Source: a virus
Lineage: Duplodnaviria; Caudoviricetes
Direction: 5' to 3' (one strand)
Length of the DNA stretch: 64,000 nt
Virus record (IMG/VR): IMGVR_UViG_3300037762_000184
Coordinates: 19,653 to 83,652 of that record
Position numbers and translations under genes: made by a program. The notes under the pieces were generated by a model. That model saw only the letters and a list, made by a program, of their open reading frames with translations, made no database searches and was not told the origin of the DNA. Shown piece after piece: positions 19,634-38,641 of the stretch (position 1 is its first letter; each line of letters opens with the position of its first letter).

Positions 19634-20007
19634 TGCGCGCCTCCGTTGTCCGCCAAGCAGTCGTAGAAGATCCGGGTGTGCGTCATCTGCTGCCCGCTCC
19701 AGTCCTCGGCCTTCATGAACTGCTCCTCGCTCACCACCTCCCACTCGGCGCCGCCGTGGTTCGCGGTGCACAGCTTGGCGATCCGGTTGTAAGCCTTCTG
19801 CGGGCCGGCCAGCTCTGAGTAGACGACCGCGCCGTCTACGCGCGGGTCCACGTTGGCCGGGGCGTTGCGCATGTTGGCTGGGGACGGCTCGGCGGTGACG
19901 CAGGCAAGCGCCAGCACCAGCAGAGCCGGGAGCAGCAGGGCTGCGCACCCGTAGCGGACCTCGACATTCGGGGGTGCGGTGGGGAGGGGTGGCTTGGTCG
20001 GCGTCAC
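19630..20007 (-). CDS. putative lipoprotein
   Basis: LLLPALLVLALAC lipobox-like. Confidence 0.6.
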   Translation of the reverse strand: MTPTKPPLPTAPPNVEVRYGCAALLLPALLVLALACVTAEPSPANMRNAPANVDPRVDGAVVYSELAGPQKAYNRIAKLCTANHGGAEWEVVSEEQFMKAEDWSGQQMTHTRIFYDCLADNGGAQ

Positions 20008-23786: not shown

Positions 23787-23856
23787 TGCGGTTCCAATAG
23801 TACCGCATCGGTGCTTGTGCGCGCAACAAGCACCGGCCACCCTCATTTCGGGACTA

Positions 23857-26800
23857 GTGCGCGTGCCGAAAACCACAACCAACGGAAGCGGCAACGGCGC
23901 GGCCGAACCTCGCCTGCCGACCAGCCGTCTGCGCGCCATGGGCTCAGCGCTGGTGGCGCGCGCACGGCTTGCCTCACGGGCCGGGCTGAGCTTCGGCGGT
24001 AAGCGCGACTTCTACACTGCGCTCGGTTACGAGCGCGACCTCACAATTCAGCACTACCGCGAGCTATACGAACGCGGCGGTATCGCTCGAAAACTGGTCG
24101 ACCTCATCCCGACCCTGGCATGGACAGCCGGCGGCGCCGACATCGTGGAAGACCCGGACCCCGGCGAGCTCACGGAATTCGAGACGCAGGCTGCCGAGCT
24201 GTTCGCGCGCGTCGACGCCTGGCCTCGCTTCCGCCGCGCGGACATCCTTTCTCGTCTCGGCCGCTACTCCGTTCTGCTGCTCGGTACGTCAGACCTTGAA
24301 ACGCAGGCGGACTTCGCGCAGCCGCTGTCGAAGCTCTCCGGTCCGGACGACATCCTCTACCTCACGCCGAGAGCCGAGAGCCACGCGAAGATCTGCTCTC
24401 TCGTCAAGAAGCCTTCCGACCCGCGCTTCGGCCTGCCTGAGTTCTACAACGTCGATCTGGGGCACGACGAAGACAGCAAGGCGCTCCTCTCCGGAGGGAC
24501 GCAGAAAACCCACTGGACGCGCGTGGTCCACATTGCCGGCGGGCTGCTCGATAACGACGTGTACGGCGAGCCGGCCCTGCGTGCGTTGTGGAACCTCCTC
24601 TTCAACCTCGAAAAGCTGCTCGGCGGCGGCTCAGAGGCGACGTGGAAGCGGATGAACCCGCTGACGCTCTTCGACCTGAGCCCCGATGCCGTACTCGGCG
24701 ACACGCCCGCGGAGATCGAGGAAGCCGAAGAGGCGTTGGAGGACGAGATCGAAGAGCTGGTGCATGGGTACCGTTCCTATGCCCAGGCCACTGGTCTCGA
24801 AGTAAAGAGCATCAGTCAGGCGGTGCCCAACTTCGGGCCGAACGCGGCGGCAATCGAACGCCATATCGCGGGCACCGGAAACATCCCCCATCGCGTCCTC
24901 TTCGGAACGGAGCGCGGCGAGCTAGCCAGCGCGCAGGACCGCTCGAATCTCAGCGACAACGTCCAGGGCTACCGGGACAGCCACTGCAACGTGGTAGTCC
25001 GCCAGTTCCTCGCCCGCTTGATTGAATACGGCGCTCTTCCCGGGCCGGTCAAGCATGAGCTGGTATGGCCTGAGATGGAAGAGATGAGCGAGCCCGAAAA
25101 GGCCGACGTGGTCAGCAAGATGGCGACCGCGAACAAGGCCAACGTCGACGCAGGCGGCGGCCTGATCGTCGCCGCGAACGAGTTGCGGAACGACGTACTC
25201 GGCAAAGGGCCTATCGAAGAGATCGAAAACTCCGGGGTGGCCGAGGGAGGCGGCGACGGTGGTCCCTCCTCTGCCGTCGCCGCCTCCCTCCGGGCTGCGA
25301 AGCTCAGGCTGTGCCGGAAGCGCGGGCTGGACTTCGGGCCTGACTCTCCGGCCGCGCTTGCCGGTAACGAGGAGCCAGAGTGGCGCGCAGTCCACCGTGC
25401 TGCCGACTTGCACATGGAGTCTCTGGCGCGGGCTGTCGTCGGCGCCTGGGATGACGGAGCGGCGGAGATCGACGACGGCGCCCTTGAGGACGCGCTCGCC
25501 GCCGGCAACTTCGGTGCCGCCGAAACCGTCGCGCTCGCCGGTGTCACTGCCGCCGAGCAACGTCTCGCCGAGATCCTGCCTGACCGACTACTCGCCACCC
25601 TGGTAGATGGTGGCCTCGCCGCTCTGCGGTCCGCTCGGTCGCGCGGTTCTTTCTTCCGCCGCGCCGCGGGATTCTCGGCGCAGTTCGATGCGACCAACCC
25701 GCGCGCCGTCACGTGGGCGGAGGAGCGTTCCTCGCTGCTGATCACGGAGATCGGCGTCGAAACGGTGTCGGCGATGCAGGCGCTCATCGCGCAGGGCCTC
25801 GCCGAGGGCATCCCGCCCCGGAAGCTGGCGCAGCAGATTCGGGCTGCGGTAGGGCTGCGCTCGGATCAGGTGTCGGCCGTCCAGAACCTCATCACGGAGT
25901 TGCAGGCGGCGAAGCCCGGCTCGCTGGTGACGCGCTTCCCTCCGCGGGAGGGCCTGCGTGGCTCTGCCGGCTTCAAGGCTCGCATTCCGAAGAGCGGCAT
26001 CACGCAGGAGTGGTTGGACCGGCAGGCGGCGCGGTACTCGACGATGCAGCGGAACTACCGAGCCAGAACAATCGCTCGCAGTGAAACAATGAGAAGTGCG
26101 AACGAGGGTGTCCGCGAGCTTTGGAGGCAGGGCCAAGAGTCCGGTCAGCTCCCAGCGGATATCAAGCGGGTCTGGCTTCACAACACTGATCGCCACGCAG
26201 ACCGGGCCGGGGTGGCGGTAGGCATTGACGAGCCTTGGCCGTGGGGAACCGAGCCGGGCGAAGAGGTGAACTGCTTCCTACCTGGAACGGATGTCAGCGG
26301 CGCGTTCGTGGCTGGCCTAAAAACCCTCTATGCGGGGCCGGCTATCGAAGTAGCCACCCGGCAGGGTCACCGGCTGCGCCTCACGCCCAATCACCCCGTA
26401 CTGACTTCGCAAGGTTGGTTGCCGGCGAAGAGTCTCCGCAAGGGCCAGCAGCTTGTCTGCTGCCTTCCGGAGGTTGATCTTCTGTCGAGCGGAGCCCTGC
26501 TCGGGGGCGAACGTCCCGCCAGCGAGGCGTTCTCTCGGCCGAGTCCATCCGTGCCGCGAGCCGTTGGGCGACGTGGCGCAGACGACGATCAGGGACCAAC
26601 CCTGATTGAGGACGTATTCGAAGCGCTTGCGTCTCAGGGCGCCTTGGCGCGCAAAGGCTGTACTGGTCTCGATCTCCACGGCGATGCGAAGTGGTCGGAT
26701 GGCGAGGTCCAGATTGTAGGGGCCGAGAGGGAACTGGTGCGTTACCTTGATTCCGCCGCGTCTCAGGAGAGCAGCGAGCTCATGTTCGAGAGGGCTGGTG

Positions 26801-27222
26801 TGATTCGCGCGCTCGCAGTTGGTGCGAGCCCTGGCAATCCTGGCTTCCAGAGGGTCGACGCGCCCCCGTCTGGCTTTCCACGCGGCGCTGAGTTGGCGGC
26901 GGACAGCCTCCCCGCCCTGCGCCTTGATGGACCTCCACTTCAGCCTCTGCGCGTCGGCCCTGCCGCGTATCTGGACACCGTTAAGCCGAAAGCGCCTCTC
27001 GATACACCTGCGGCTGAGTCCCGTTTCGTCGGCGAGCTGCTTCATGGAGGCGCCGGCCTTGTAGCGTTCGATGAGGTTGTGCAGGTTCGGGATTTCTCGT
27101 TCCGCGGACACGTCTTCGATCTCCAGTCTGTGACGGGTTGGCTTTCCGCTGGCAACATTATCACAAGCAACTGTGGCTGCGCACAGGGCATCGAAGATCC
27201 CGCGCGGGCGGAGGCGGCGTGA
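23857..27222 (+). CDS. portal protein (DUF1073-like) fused to head morphogenesis MuF domain, intein-containing
   Basis: YERGGIARKLVD, ADILSRLGRY, IPHRVLFG portal motifs; RARTIARSE and EEVN|CGC MuF motifs; single open frame; start uncertain. Confidence 0.85.
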   Translation: MRVPKTTTNGSGNGAAEPRLPTSRLRAMGSALVARARLASRAGLSFGGKRDFYTALGYERDLTIQHYRELYERGGIARKLVDLIPTLAWTAGGADIVEDPDPGELTEFETQAAELFARVDAWPRFRRADILSRLGRYSVLLLGTSDLETQADFAQPLSKLSGPDDILYLTPRAESHAKICSLVKKPSDPRFGLPEFYNVDLGHDEDSKALLSGGTQKTHWTRVVHIAGGLLDNDVYGEPALRALWNLLFNLEKLLGGGSEATWKRMNPLTLFDLSPDAVLGDTPAEIEEAEEALEDEIEELVHGYRSYAQATGLEVKSISQAVPNFGPNAAAIERHIAGTGNIPHRVLFGTERGELASAQDRSNLSDNVQGYRDSHCNVVVRQFLARLIEYGALPGPVKHELVWPEMEEMSEPEKADVVSKMATANKANVDAGGGLIVAANELRNDVLGKGPIEEIENSGVAEGGGDGGPSSAVAASLRAAKLRLCRKRGLDFGPDSPAALAGNEEPEWRAVHRAADLHMESLARAVVGAWDDGAAEIDDGALEDALAAGNFGAAETVALAGVTAAEQRLAEILPDRLLATLVDGGLAALRSARSRGSFFRRAAGFSAQFDATNPRAVTWAEERSSLLITEIGVETVSAMQALIAQGLAEGIPPRKLAQQIRAAVGLRSDQVSAVQNLITELQAAKPGSLVTRFPPREGLRGSAGFKARIPKSGITQEWLDRQAARYSTMQRNYRARTIARSETMRSANEGVRELWRQGQESGQLPADIKRVWLHNTDRHADRAGVAVGIDEPWPWGTEPGEEVNCFLPGTDVSGAFVAGLKTLYAGPAIEVATRQGHRLRLTPNHPVLTSQGWLPAKSLRKGQQLVCCLPEVDLLSSGALLGGERPASEAFSRPSPSVPRAVGRRGADDDQGPTLIEDVFEALASQGALARKGCTGLDLHGDAKWSDGEVQIVGAERELVRYLDSAASQESSELMFERAGVIRALAVGASPGNPGFQRVDAPPSGFPRGAELAADSLPALRLDGPPLQPLRVGPAAYLDTVKPKAPLDTPAAESRFVGELLHGGAGLVAFDEVVQVRDFSFRGHVFDLQSVTGWLSAGNIITSNCGCAQGIEDPARAEAA
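26272..27171 (+). mobile_element. intein (300 aa) in the MuF domain
   Basis: CFLPGT start, LTPNHPVLT block B, VFDLQS block F, TSN|C end; splicing restores GEEVNCGC. Confidence 0.9.
26317..27111 (-). CDS. HTH plus DUF559/Vsr-like endonuclease, antisense within the intein
   Basis: SPLEHELAALL...QFPLGPYNLDLAI...IAVEIE...GWSLI; N-terminal YKAGASMKQLADETGLS HTH; GGAG RBS before GTG. Confidence 0.75.
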   Translation of the reverse strand: MSAEREIPNLHNLIERYKAGASMKQLADETGLSRRCIERRFRLNGVQIRGRADAQRLKWRSIKAQGGEAVRRQLSAAWKARRGRVDPLEARIARARTNCERANHTSPLEHELAALLRRGGIKVTHQFPLGPYNLDLAIRPLRIAVEIETSTAFARQGALRRKRFEYVLNQGWSLIVVCATSPNGSRHGWTRPRERLAGGTFAPEQGSARQKINLRKAADKLLALAETLRRQPTLRSQYGVIGREAQPVTLPGGYFDSRPRIEGF

Positions 27223-28895
27223 CCACTCCCCGCTTCACCATCCTCGCCGCGCAGGTCAACCCGGCGCAGATCCATACGGCGAGAGCCGAAGACCGCGACT
27301 ACCTGGTTCTGCCGGTCGTCGCGCTGGTCGGCGACTCCGTGGTTCGTCCTCTCAACTCTGACGGTCCGGAGTTCGTGCCGCTTCGCGAGCTTGCCGTGGC
27401 TCCCGGTCAGTGGGCTGGGCGCCCGATCGTCGCCGATCATCCGGCCGGCGGAACCGGCTCCGCCAACGACCCAAAGGTGTTGGAGGCGCAGCGCTACGGC
27501 TGGGTTTACTGCTCGGATATTCAGAACGGGAAGCTCTGCGCCGAGGGCTGGCTCGACCCCGAGCGCGCCGAAAAGATCGGTGGCGATGCCGTCCGCGTCG
27601 TCGATGTCGCCCGTCGAGCGATGGCTGGCGAGGAGGTCGACCCGGTCGAGGTGTCGGTCGGCTGCTGGGTGACGCTGATCCGCGAAGACGGCGTCTCGCC
27701 CAGCGGCGTGCCCTATGAGTACCGATGGACAGGCGTCGCCAGCGATCACCTTGCCGTCGGCCTGAACGGGGCCACAGGGGCATGCAGCGTCGACTCAGGG
27801 TGCGGAGCGCCAAGAGCGGCGCAAGCCCTTGAGGCGGCCGCACTTTCCGGCGAGAACGCCACGAGCCCGCAGCCCCCGATCCAGATCAACGAACCGAAGG
27901 CGGTGCTCCGCGCTGCCGAGCAGGAGAAAAACACGATGAAGCTTCCGAAGCGAATCCTCGACGCGCTGGCCGCGACGCTGGGTTTCCGAGCCTCAGCCGA
28001 GGACGAAGGCCCATCCGATGTCGACCTCCGCGACGCCCTGTACGCAGCTCTTCGCGCCATCGAGGCGGGTTTTGACTGGATTGCGGAGGTCTATCCGGAC
28101 AGCTCGACCGTGATCTACACCACGTTTCCGGAGGACGCGATGCTCTGGTGGCGCCGGAGCTACGCCGTGGCCGAGGACGGGACGGTGACGCTCGCCGACG
28201 ACCGCGAACAGGTCGAGCCGGTGACGCGGTACGAGCCGCTCGCCGCGAAGACGGACGGCGACCCTGAGCCCGAGCAGAAGCCTACCAATCACCCCGCGAC
28301 CGCGAAGGCGGCTTGCGGATGTCCGACGAAGGGCGAAGGGCTTGCCGCCCCCGCCCCGAAACAGAGCGAAGGAGTGACCATGGAGAAGGTCAAGGAACTG
28401 GTGGGGCGGCTGATCGCCAACGAGGCGAGCCCCTTCACTGACGAGGACCAGGCGGGGCTGGAGGCGCTCAGCGAGGCGAAGCTGGAGGCTCTCGACGCAG
28501 CGCTCCAGCCGGGCGAGTCCGCACCCGAGCCGGAGCCGGCACCCGCGCCGACGCCGGTGGCCGAAGAGCCGGCCGACGACGACGACACCGTCAAGCTCTC
28601 GCGAGAGGAGTACGACGACATCAAGGCGTCCGCCGCAGCCTACAAGGCGCAGCAGGCCGCGATGAAGGCGAAGCTCGTGGCCCAGCTCAAGGGCGCGCAG
28701 GACGCCTACAGCGAGGCCGAACTGGCGGCGATGCCCATCTTCGCGCTGGAGAAGGTCGCCAAGCTGGCGAAGGTCGAGCCGGCGCCTCAGCCGAGCTATG
28801 CCGGGCGTGGTCTGGCGAGCGACGAAACCGACAACCGCGTCCCGCCGCCGCCCGACTTCGGCGAGGCCGTCCGCGCTCTCCGTAGCGTGGCGTAA
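27219..28895 (+). CDS. prohead protease/scaffold (DUF2213-like)
   Basis: EVSVG, DHLAV...GACS..GCG motifs; acidic scaffold C-terminus; before the capsid genes. Confidence 0.85.
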   Translation: MTTPRFTILAAQVNPAQIHTARAEDRDYLVLPVVALVGDSVVRPLNSDGPEFVPLRELAVAPGQWAGRPIVADHPAGGTGSANDPKVLEAQRYGWVYCSDIQNGKLCAEGWLDPERAEKIGGDAVRVVDVARRAMAGEEVDPVEVSVGCWVTLIREDGVSPSGVPYEYRWTGVASDHLAVGLNGATGACSVDSGCGAPRAAQALEAAALSGENATSPQPPIQINEPKAVLRAAEQEKNTMKLPKRILDALAATLGFRASAEDEGPSDVDLRDALYAALRAIEAGFDWIAEVYPDSSTVIYTTFPEDAMLWWRRSYAVAEDGTVTLADDREQVEPVTRYEPLAAKTDGDPEPEQKPTNHPATAKAACGCPTKGEGLAAPAPKQSEGVTMEKVKELVGRLIANEASPFTDEDQAGLEALSEAKLEALDAALQPGESAPEPEPAPAPTPVAEEPADDDDTVKLSREEYDDIKASAAAYKAQQAAMKAKLVAQLKGAQDAYSEAELAAMPIFALEKVAKLAKVEPAPQPSYAGRGLASDETDNRVPPPPDFGEAVRALRSVA

Positions 28896-35934: not shown

Positions 35935-36140
35935 CCGGACTCGACTTATTGCGCCGCGTCTTCATCCCTCGGGAGCTTCCGGTGGCGGAGGGCGGCAGCG
36001 TCTTCCGGACGATCGACGGGCAGACCTATCGCCGGATGGCTGACGGTTCGATTCGGCGCCACCCGCCGAAGGTGAACTGCAAGGCGGCGAAGCGGGCGCG
36101 GCTCAAGGCCCGGCGAGCAGCGGAGGTGGCATGCGTCTGA
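35931..36140 (+). CDS. hypothetical protein
   Basis: Coupled overlaps. Confidence 0.5.
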   Translation: MTGLDLLRRVFIPRELPVAEGGSVFRTIDGQTYRRMADGSIRRHPPKVNCKAAKRARLKARRAAEVACV

Positions 36141-38641
36141 TTTTCGTGGGCGACTCGCCGACGGTGGACACCGGATTTTCGCGTTGCACCCGCGCGGCCT
36201 GCGCCGAGCTTCACAACGCCGGCCATGAGGTCCACGTCCTCGGCATCAATGAAAGCGGCGACCCGCACGACTATCCGTATCCGATCTATCCGCCGCGGAG
36301 CTTACGGGACCGCTCCCGTAGCGCGTTCGGCATGGATCGGCTGCCTGCGCTCTCGGCACGCCTAAAGCCTGACGTGGTGGTTCTGCTCACGGACCCGTGG
36401 CACGTCCCCGCGTACCTCGCCGCATTCGAGGACGCCGGGGTGGAGTGCCCGCCGATGGTCGCGTGGCTGGCGGTGGATTCCAAGAACCACCCGAACAGCG
36501 CGGAGTTGAACCCACTCGCTCACATCGTGACCTGGACGCAATTTGCGCAGGATCAGCTGCGTGCTGGTGGCTACACCGGGCCGGCCTCCATCGTGCCGCT
36601 CGGCGTGGATACTTCGCTCTTTTACCCACGCGATCGCGCTGCCGCCCGCGCTGAGCTGCGGGCCATCAGTGGCGCCGAAGTCTTCGGGCCGGAGGATTAC
36701 ATCGTCGGATATGTGGGAAGGAACCAATCGCGCAAACGAGTAGATTTGCTGATCGGTTACTTCGCCGAATGGATCACCCGCTACAACATCCGTGACGCCT
36801 ATCTCTACCTCAAGGTGGCGCCGACAGGGGAGTCAGGGTGTGACATCCGCAGCGTCGCCACCTACTACGGCAAGGCGGTGGAAGGCCGCCTGCTGGTGTC
36901 CGCACCGCCGGCCGGATTCGGCGCTCCCGACGACCTCATGCCGCTCGTTTACAGCGCGATGGACGTGTATCTCACCACCACGCAGGGCGAGGGCTGGGGC
37001 CTTTGCGTCAGCCCCGACACACTGATTCAGACTCCGCAGGGTGCCCTCCCGATGCGCGACATTTCGTCCGGCGACCGGGTGATGACTCAGGACGGATCGT
37101 TCCATGACGTGCGCGCAAAGATCACGCGCGAGGACGAGGTGATGCGGGTCAAGGTCGCCGGATCGCCAGCACTGACGGTGACGCCGCAGCATCCGTTCCT
37201 GGTCTTGCCGCGGCGCTCTGCTCCGCAGGACTACTACCGACGGCATCCCGAGGCGCCGCGCTGGACCCGCGCTGACGAGTTGCGCGAGGGTGATCTGGTG
37301 GCTTGCCCTCGCCCTCCGTGGTCTGACTCTTTACCCGACTCCTTTGATCTTGCCGAAGCCGCCGACTCGCGCACGAAGATGGACGAGGACGCGATCTGGC
37401 ACCCCATGGGATTCTCGCCCCGTGACCGACGGCAGTCCCTGTCTGCGATCGCGGCCACTCATGGCGTTTCTAGTCGCGTTGCCGAGGACGCCGTGGCGTT
37501 CGCGAACGGGTCAGCCACGCCGGTGCGCGCGCAGTCGGCGTCCCGCGCCCTTGCCGAGACGCTCGGTCCGATGCCGAAGGCACAGCCGGTCAAGCTCTGT
37601 CGCCGGGTGCCGGTCAACGCGCGAACCTTGGAGTTGCTCGGCTGGTTCCTTGCTGAGGGCTCGACGGGAGGCGGGAACAGGGTCGAGATTGACCTGCACG
37701 CGCGCGAGCTGCCGGTCGCCGAACGCCTCGCTGAAACCTTCCTGACCGCATTCGGTGCCGAAGCGACCATCGAGCGCAACGGCCCGAACAAGTGCCGGGT
37801 CCGTGTCTGCTCAACGCTGCTTGCCCGATGGTTTCGCCAAATGTGCGGCAACGGTGCGCGTAACAAGAGGTTATCCCCCGCGCTCTGGCGTAGCGCGGCC
37901 CATCTCGGACCGCTGGTCGCTGCATACTTCCGCGGAGACGGCTACTGGCAAGGTAACGGGTGGCGGGTGACGACGGCCTCTACCGACCTCGCTTGGCAGA
38001 TCCGCATGGTGCTAGCCGCGGTCGGTATCCACGCGTCGGTCCGCAGGCTTTCGCGTGAGCGGGCGTGGGCGGTCGATGTCTGCGGTGCGCCGGCAGAACG
38101 GTTCTCTCAGTGGTGCGGGCTACCAACGCGAGCGGACCGTACTCGCAAGGCGGGGAAGACAGCCCTCACCCGCGAAGACTTCATCTTCGTTCCGGTGCGG
38201 AAGATTCACAGGACCGGCGAGCGCTCTGTGGTGATGGACATCGAGGTGGACAGCGTCCATAGCTTTGTCGGTGCTGGCGTGATCCTTCACAACACGACTC
38301 ACGAGGCGATGGCGTGTGGGGTTCCGTGCATCGTGCCGGACTGGTCGGCCCTCGGGGAGTGGACGGAGGACGCGGCGATCAAGGTCCCGTGTACCTCGAC
38401 GGCTCTCACGGCACCGCTGAATCAGTTCCCCTACACCATCGGCGGGGTGCCGGACAAGGAAGCGACCATCGCGGCCCTGCATGCCCTCTATTCGAGCCGG
38501 GAGCTGCGCGACGAGCACCGCGAGCGAGGACTGGCGCTGACGGCGCGCCCGGAGTACCAGTGGAGCAACGTGGGCGTGGCCTTCCGCGAGACGCTGGAGC
38601 GGGTGCTGGAGCCCGCGGCTGCCGGTGAGGTGGCCGCCTGA
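36131..38641 (+). CDS. glycosyltransferase family 4, intein-containing
   Basis: TGFSR, VGRNQSRKR, EGWGL|TTHEAMACG after splicing. Confidence 0.9.
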   Translation: MRLIFVGDSPTVDTGFSRCTRAACAELHNAGHEVHVLGINESGDPHDYPYPIYPPRSLRDRSRSAFGMDRLPALSARLKPDVVVLLTDPWHVPAYLAAFEDAGVECPPMVAWLAVDSKNHPNSAELNPLAHIVTWTQFAQDQLRAGGYTGPASIVPLGVDTSLFYPRDRAAARAELRAISGAEVFGPEDYIVGYVGRNQSRKRVDLLIGYFAEWITRYNIRDAYLYLKVAPTGESGCDIRSVATYYGKAVEGRLLVSAPPAGFGAPDDLMPLVYSAMDVYLTTTQGEGWGLCVSPDTLIQTPQGALPMRDISSGDRVMTQDGSFHDVRAKITREDEVMRVKVAGSPALTVTPQHPFLVLPRRSAPQDYYRRHPEAPRWTRADELREGDLVACPRPPWSDSLPDSFDLAEAADSRTKMDEDAIWHPMGFSPRDRRQSLSAIAATHGVSSRVAEDAVAFANGSATPVRAQSASRALAETLGPMPKAQPVKLCRRVPVNARTLELLGWFLAEGSTGGGNRVEIDLHARELPVAERLAETFLTAFGAEATIERNGPNKCRVRVCSTLLARWFRQMCGNGARNKRLSPALWRSAAHLGPLVAAYFRGDGYWQGNGWRVTTASTDLAWQIRMVLAAVGIHASVRRLSRERAWAVDVCGAPAERFSQWCGLPTRADRTRKAGKTALTREDFIFVPVRKIHRTGERSVVMDIEVDSVHSFVGAGVILHNTTHEAMACGVPCIVPDWSALGEWTEDAAIKVPCTSTALTAPLNQFPYTIGGVPDKEATIAALHALYSSRELRDEHRERGLALTARPEYQWSNVGVAFRETLERVLEPAAAGEVAA
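37004..38293 (+). mobile_element. intein (430 aa) with LAGLIDADG endonuclease
   Basis: CVSPDT start, VTPQHPF, LLGWFLAEGS and AAYFRGDG motifs, ILHN|T end. Confidence 0.9.

Follow-up and report, generated by a model that had tools for sequence, protein, structure and literature searches.

The question raised by the locus described here is whether an intein in a phage head gene can carry its homing endonuclease as a separate gene on the opposite strand, or whether the long open reading frame (ORF) seen there is an accident of base composition. The locus lies in a window of 64,000 nucleotides (nt), positions 19,653 to 83,652 of the IMG/VR virus record IMGVR_UViG_3300037762_000184. The record is complete (83,652 bp, direct terminal repeats) and comes from an uncultivated phage; the GC content of the window is 66.7%. 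An earlier note, made from the letters alone, had proposed an intein in a MuF head gene with an antisense nuclease inside it, and antisense VSR-like homing endonucleases in contiguous actinophage inteins were reported by Gosselin, Arsenault and Gogarten (bioRxiv 10.1101/2025.01.02.630785). Based on sequence comparison and structural models, we suggest that an antisense, separately translated homing nuclease inside the MuF intein, the two forming one composite selfish element, is the best explanation of the locus, with a probability of about 0.82. Its main parts are as follows.

23815..27222, plus strand: precursor ORF that joins a portal domain to a MuF-like head-morphogenesis domain and is interrupted by the intein; start codon uncertain
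26272..27171, plus strand: class-1 intein of 300 amino acids (aa), with Cys1, block B TPNH, C-terminal Ser-Asn and +1 Cys
26317..27111, minus strand: endonuclease gene written antisense, with 264 aa and a GTG start; its codons are in register with those of the intein
27121..27124, minus strand: GGAG Shine-Dalgarno sequence, 9 nt upstream of the GTG; complementary to CTC-C of the intein Asp-Leu-Gln codons

Is the antisense frame a gene?

The nuclease and intein frames use the same triplets, with position 1 opposite position 3 and position 2 opposite position 2. This exact antiparallel register extends over 795 nt that serve both genes, in agreement with the ~800 bp of dual coding claimed in the earlier note. 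The nuclease ORF overlaps the two lobes of the intein's Hint domain by ~50 codons and ~25 codons. Its GTG start is the complement of the block-F His codon, and its GGAG does lie, as had been proposed, on the complement of the block F codons. Both frames can stay open because only the Leu codons TTA and CTA and the Ser codon TCA make stops in the other frame, and a codon-aligned antisense register leaves long open frames in GC-rich genes. The open frame of the window alone is no evidence for a gene, because at 66.7% GC the probability of finding no TTA, CTA or TCA over the nuclease ORF is ~0.10.

Two samples of relatives were therefore compared, and stops in the antisense frame of homologous inteins were what the earlier note had asked for as a sign against the gene. 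The first sample was ascertained by the nuclease and holds 87 loci with a GC of 39-71%, found by a locus search with a 6-sequence alignment (a search of genome contigs gave only 2 loci). The codon-aligned antisense frame is open over the whole nuclease ORF, with the N- and C-terminal Hint blocks flanking it, in 86 of these 87 loci, and the other two antisense frames are closed. The second sample was ascertained by the intein, through block B, and holds 80 loci with a GC of 37-73%; these are the best 80 of more than 510 relatives in IMG/VR, and therefore mini-inteins may lie further down the list. An unbroken nuclease-like ORF of at least 200 aa (hidden Markov model E<=1e-42) stands in the antisense frame of 79 of the 80.

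The stop-creating codons TTA, CTA and TCA were not observed at all in 61 non-redundant nuclease ORFs, against 210 expected if each locus used its Leu and Ser codons as in its extein, and in single low-GC loci this avoidance reaches P values of 1e-9 to 1e-5. Diversity at position 3 of the nuclease codons exceeds that at position 1 over aa 11-140 (0.53 versus 0.30 at aa 51-60, and 0.245 versus 0.110 in the closest pair). The order is reversed, with the intein frame dominant, where the nuclease overlaps the Hint lobes (its aa 221-264 and 1-10), and amino-acid identity switches between the frames along the element in the same way. In 54 of 68 loci the block-F His codon gives ATG or GTG when read antisense. 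Four codons upstream a Leu is written CTC, which gives GGAG on the other strand, in 48 of 49 loci (the baseline of CTC for Leu is 31%; P 2e-23) and in 35 of 42 loci of the second sample. Judged from these codons, the fixation of CTC is a synonymous-site constraint that the putative ribosome-binding site of the nuclease places on the intein. Two terminator-like matches, found in a scan around the antisense start, are no more than chance would give.

The claim of the earlier note that the nuclease is separately translated is thus supported by the pattern of substitution, the start codon and the Shine-Dalgarno constraint, which all point to such a gene. It is the comparison across the family, together with homology, and not the single open frame, that is decisive for taking the ORF as a probable gene.

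One locus departs from the pattern. In L084 (2483-3250, plus strand; L140 is on the same contig) the nuclease ORF meets a single in-frame stop after ~aa 177 and then continues, while the intein frame is open. Either an incipient decay of the nuclease or an error of sequencing may account for this stop.

The intein on the plus strand

The insert was confirmed as a class-1 intein with a predicted Hint fold and predicted splicing. The coordinates given in the earlier note were exact and its view that the splicing blocks are intact was borne out: Cys1 is at 26272-26274, TPNH of block B at intein aa 38-41, Asn300 at 27169-27171 and the +1 Cys at 27172-27174 (N|CGC). In an alignment with 26 intein relatives, the residues Cys1, N40, H41, T45 and N300 are invariant, and the +1 Cys is kept across the family. 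The penultimate His of block G (HN) is replaced by Ser in the window (Ser-Asn); in 36 relatives the penultimate pairs are SN (19), HN (10), KN (4) and GN (3), and a residue other than His is tolerated variation among inteins. The Pfam Intein_splicing profile, which covers the long insert poorly, gives 28.1 bits, below its cut-off of 35.8. The parts of the intein and its C-terminal flank are listed below with the pLDDT values (predicted local distance difference test) of an AlphaFold2 (AF2) model that was built with the 26 relatives.

26272..26469, plus strand: N-terminal Hint lobe, aa 1-66, pLDDT 92-98; from 26317 it also encodes the antisense nuclease C-terminal tail
27037..27171, plus strand: C-terminal Hint lobe, aa 256-300 with blocks F and G, pLDDT 78-98; overlaps the nuclease N-terminus up to 27111
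27172..27222, plus strand: C-extein, 16 aa and stop; begins Cys-Gly-Cys, which is the CxC part of N|CRC in MuF

The model has a pLDDT above 90 at residues 1-66 and ~260-300, and below 50 at residues 68-106 and 153-222. In VIA-align it matches the hedgehog Hint domain 1at0 (Z 11.8, root-mean-square deviation (rmsd) 1.6, 106 aligned residues) and the Mtu RecA intein 2imz (Z 11.5), and all 22 chains at Z >=8 are Hint domains or inteins. Intein-less MuF genes read NCRC or SCRC without interruption at the insertion place, and because of this the insert is seen to sit in a conserved MuF motif; conserved motifs are typical places of intein insertion.

The predicted nuclease

Two domains were assigned on the antisense gene.

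26971..27108, minus strand: helix-turn-helix (HTH) domain, nuclease aa 2-47; HTH_58 and structural matches
26362..26805, minus strand: Vsr/DUF559-like nuclease domain, aa 103-250; D135 and E146 invariant

The reading of this ORF as an HTH domain followed by a DUF559/Vsr-like nuclease stood up in profile, sequence and fold, the absence of profile matches being another sign that the earlier note had named against the gene. The Pfam matches are weak yet collinear. HTH_58 matches aa 12-56 with E 4e-5, just at its cut-off, and residues 2-47 match the HTH domains of resolvase, Tc3 and Hin (Z 6.0-6.6). MTES_1575 (E 2e-3, 18.5 bits) and DUF559 (E 0.06, 13.6 bits) both cover aa 109-177. Judged from these scores, the Pfam resemblance is one at the level of the superfamily only. 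An exhaustive HMMER search with the nuclease as query gave 1536 cluster representatives at E<=1e-3, 83 of them at E<=1e-30.

The AF2 model of the nuclease has a mean pLDDT of 88.2. A Foldseek search of this model against the PDB gave no match at E<=1e-3 (3r3p reached E 0.025), and the clear Vsr-family structural matches came afterward from an exhaustive aligner. In these, residues 103-250 match Vsr endonuclease 1cw0 (Z 10.1, rmsd 2.5, 113 aligned), the DUF559 structure 3hrl (Z 9.7) and the homing endonuclease I-Bth0305I 3r3p (Z 9.2, 94/98 residues); the family profile matches 3hrl with E 8.6e-4. In 38 diverged members R49, W59, D135, A144 and E146 are invariant, and E109, Q126, N133 and R163 are nearly so in the family. 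In the family-profile alignment D135 and E146 fall on the Asp and Glu of the DUF559 motif, and E109 and D135 on the Glu and Asp of 3hrl. Two candidates for a second Asp (I-Bth0305I D222; Vsr D97) are not constant in the family: position 165 is E or K and position 170 is D or N.

The embedded nuclease of L090 (2501-3436, plus strand; GC 0.52) has 312 aa with a duplicated N-terminal HTH module, in an intein of 351 aa.

Two frames at the same codons

The centre of the intein had been described in the earlier note as non-descript sequence. This does not hold for residues 110-150, which are conserved and modelled with confidence, so the centre is not uniformly non-descript.

26599..26721, plus strand: conserved intein-frame module, aa 110-150, IEDVF...DLHGDA...V.VVG; pLDDT 82-92; antisense to the nuclease catalytic strands

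In this module H136, G137 and D138 are nearly invariant in the alignment of relatives. Part of the conservation is a shadow of the nuclease, because the module is antisense to its catalytic strands. That the 'DLHGDA' motif is a mere shadow of the nuclease 'IAVE' strand was considered and rejected as a full explanation, since synonymous sites are fixed there and free at other Ala columns. Nuclease A144 is GCC in 68/70 loci (P 2e-20), V145 is GTG in 56/61 (P 9e-26), A137 is GCC in 56/62 (P 3e-13) and S52 is TCC in 52/67 (P 1e-14). The same was found in 68 further loci, where A144 is GCC in 61 of 64, V145 is GTG in 52 of 55 and codon 143 (I/V) has C as its third base in 67 of 68. Other conserved Ala columns of the nuclease use all four codons. 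The bases that are fixed in the nuclease are those that give His-Gly-Asp and Gly in the intein frame, and because of this both frames appear to be selected at the same codons. Two free-standing nuclease genes, described below, are relaxed at these codons (GCG, GTA or GTT, GCT, TCA).

A place for the module within the Hint fold was also considered and found to be unsupported: the Hint matches align no more than ~105-110 residues, and the two lobes together have that length. A role of the module as a structural clasp that links the Hint lobes is no more than a guess.

Proposed mechanism and rival explanations

In the mechanism that we propose, the head gene would be translated straight through, the Hint lobes (aa 1-66 and 256-300) would fold together and splice out the 300-aa insert, and the MuF protein would be restored. 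From the opposite strand, with its own GGAG and GTG, a 264-aa protein would be made that consists of the HTH domain, a helical linker and the Vsr-like nuclease. During co-infection the nuclease would cut MuF alleles that have no intein, in the N|CRC codons or close to them, and repair would copy the intein together with the nuclease gene into the cut allele. The constraint would be shared, with the nuclease frame ruling the core, the intein frame ruling the Hint lobes, and both frames under constraint where the active-site strand of the nuclease and its ribosome-binding site are written. The catalytic His is missing, which makes the chemistry of the nuclease uncertain. It is plausible that the antisense layout would uncouple the timing of the nuclease from the late expression of the head gene, which fits the host-gene pattern of the preprint cited above.

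Several observations weigh against this proposal. Next to the probability of ~0.10 given above, the Pfam nuclease matches are all under their curated cut-offs (38.2 bits for MTES_1575 and 20.6 for DUF559). The window protein is without the His general base of Vsr, DUF559 and EDxHD enzymes: where DUF559 has DGGQH it has ETSTA, a replacement already pointed out in the earlier note and now seen in the family-profile alignment. No His column is kept after E146 in the 38 diverged members. D135 and E146 are the only acidic residues that are invariant family-wide. A scan around the antisense start revealed no sigma-70-like promoter ahead of the gene; the host may not use the sigma-70 consensus. No intein-less allele was obtained from close phage relatives, among which one 98% identical contig ends before the insertion site, and recent homing is therefore only a possibility.

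The alternative that survives best, though we regard it as unlikely, is that the antisense gene is real and expressed and no longer a homing nuclease. It would then be a DNA-binding or regulatory protein, or a nickase of other chemistry, kept for another role or by the constraint of the intein frame only. The missing Vsr/DUF559 His, with two invariant acidic residues only, and the sub-threshold Pfam scores speak for it, as does the report in the same preprint that certain VSR-like intein clusters look vertically inherited. Yet D135, E146, E109, Q126, N133 and R163 are kept in more than 70 diverged sequences, and position 3 of the nuclease codons varies more than position 1 in the core. The free-standing copies adjoin the target gene of the embedded ones, which is the typical placement of a free-standing homing endonuclease gene, and the premature stop of the L084 nuclease beside an open intein frame would be the decay expected in a homing cycle.

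Very improbable is a dead intein, in which a free-standing nuclease gene landed in the 3' end of MuF, the plus frame stayed open by accident and MuF works unspliced or truncated. A C-extein of just 16 aa, the Intein_splicing score of 28.1 versus 35.8 bits and the penultimate Ser in place of His could be taken that way. The family-wide conservation of Cys1, N40-H41, T45, Asn300 and the +1 Cys, the Hint fold at Z 11.8 and the dominance of the intein frame in the variation over both lobes argue against it, as do the stop-creating codons (0 versus 210 expected) and the CxC after the insert, which completes the conserved MuF motif.

The least credible alternative, that the antisense frame is open by chance at 67% GC and the 264-aa ORF is no gene, could draw on the P of ~0.1 for this window alone and on a register known for long shadow ORFs in GC-rich DNA, but it is already contradicted by the family comparison, with the ORF open in loci down to 37-39% GC, 1536 representative relatives (two of them shown to be free-standing), a confident Vsr-like predicted fold, synonymous-type variation that tracks the antisense frame and a Shine-Dalgarno constraint imposed on the intein frame.

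Free-standing copies and the direction of origin

Two nuclease genes of the family stand outside an intein.

L029 2486-3274, plus strand: free-standing nuclease gene, GC 0.50; follows closely downstream of an intein-less MuF gene (PF04233 E 3e-18) and is convergent with it
L087 3001-3783, plus strand: free-standing nuclease gene, GC 0.57; follows closely downstream of an intein-less MuF gene and is convergent with it

In both loci the antisense frame of the nuclease gene holds 12-17 stops, and the NCRC or SCRC of MuF is intact. In the embedded form the C-terminal helix of the nuclease (aa 214-230, pLDDT 96-97) and its tail are written over Hint residues 17-67, including block B, and the free-standing copies retain this C-terminal tail. 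The Hint domain is far older than the antisense overlap. Since Hint predates the overlap and the free-standing copies keep the tail, the tail would have arisen inside an intein. In an unrooted tree with the two free-standing loci, this pair nests with good support beside the embedded L088, then L028 and L090. We therefore put forward, tentatively and at somewhat less than even confidence, a two-way overprinting with selection on both products, in place of a gene that sits in a passive loop of the intein; the tail would then have been born in an intein and the free-standing genes would be escapees.

The host gene and its neighbours

In the ORF at 23815-27222 (plus strand) the portal domain PF06381 is found with E 7e-25 (Pfam), and a PHROG head protein match has E 5e-20. 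A weak match to MuF (PF04233, E 0.16) covers positions 13-107 of the 112 in the profile and stops exactly at precursor residue 820, which is the intein insertion point. The portal and MuF-like domains form one open frame of 1135 codons here and are separate neighbouring genes in relatives, L087 being one. The portal-MuF gene is directly followed by an ORF of 558 aa (27219-28895, plus strand) without a Pfam match; its N-terminal part appears by eye closer to its counterpart in L002 than the intein or the nuclease are to theirs.

The same phage has a second intein at ~37004-38293, within a family-4 glycosyltransferase ORF (36131-38641, plus strand). This intein carries a canonical in-frame LAGLIDADG_3 domain (E 9e-12), scores 41.6 bits with Intein_splicing and ends HN|T, and it offers an internal contrast to the antisense type.

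Relation to known systems

The architecture of the MuF intein is already published, and the window adds a member and mechanistic detail and no new kind. The earlier note had stated that intein endonucleases are normally in-frame; this is true as a rule, and the exception was already in the literature. In the preprint of Gosselin, Arsenault and Gogarten the minor-capsid inteins (IPR006528, MuF/SPP1 gp7) had only non-canonical endonucleases, the closest structural relative of these was I-Bth0305I (3R3P), and a route of invasion was proposed. In the window element, as in the actinophage inteins, the intein is contiguous and its endonuclease is encoded by an ORF of the opposite strand, the endonuclease has a Vsr-like fold and a long N-terminal part of helices, and the host gene is that of the minor capsid protein (MuF/gp7), the last assigned here by the weak Pfam MuF match, PHROG and the N|CxC position. 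It differs from them in being found in an uncultivated phage of 83.6 kb, in a portal-MuF fusion. Codon register, stop avoidance, synonymous constraints and the ribosome-binding site were not analysed in that preprint. Our additions are the fixed synonymous sites that keep the intein HGD and the free-standing copies beside intein-less MuF genes.

An antisense or out-of-frame LAGLIDADG endonuclease is attributed to the DnaX intein of cyanobacteria (Gorbalenya 1998; Gogarten 2002; both as cited by bioRxiv 10.1101/2025.01.02.630785), and Phillips et al. (bioRxiv 10.64898/2026.09.14.751524) found that selection on the DnaX intein is frame-dependent, with the endonuclease frame favoured in the overlap. 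In both systems the endonuclease is in a frame other than that of the intein, and the intein frame is kept open across it. The DnaX endonuclease is LAGLIDADG in a cellular dnaX gene, whereas that of the window is Vsr-like, in a MuF gene of a phage.

In 'fractured genes' a free-standing Vsr-like (EDxHD) endonuclease gene is placed between the halves of split inteins (Dassa et al. 2009, as cited in the preprint of Gosselin et al.). With these and with I-Bth0305I (PMC3239194) the window shares a Vsr-like catalytic domain with an N-terminal DNA-binding module and the association of intein and phage gene. The Glu and first Asp of the EDxHD enzyme I-Bth0305I (E170, D196) appear to be conserved in the window family as E109 and D135, matched through the 3hrl alignment. 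Unlike in fractured genes, the window intein is unsplit and the reading frame of the host continues across the nuclease gene. For DNA binding there is an HTH and not the NUMOD repeats of I-Bth0305I, and the EDxHD His (H213 in I-Bth0305I, H69 in Vsr) is absent in the window protein and unconserved in the family. The mobility nuclease interrupts the Hint domain at the topological position that it also has in the canonical large LAGLIDADG inteins. The canonical inteins carry the nuclease in the same polypeptide, unlike the window intein, and its expression is therefore tied to the host gene.

Implications

On the evidence of the family comparison the antisense layout is real and widespread, and gene callers miss it because only one strand is called. 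A stretch of ~800 nt that encodes two folded proteins on opposite strands, with a two-way constraint that can be measured, is a test bed for the evolution of overlapping genes. The escapee reading of the free-standing copies, if true, would reverse the usual assumption that a free-standing gene invades an intein, including the invasion route of the preprint. The locus is relevant to how inteins gain and lose their mobility nucleases, and to why inteins of late structural genes seem to carry only non-canonical ones.

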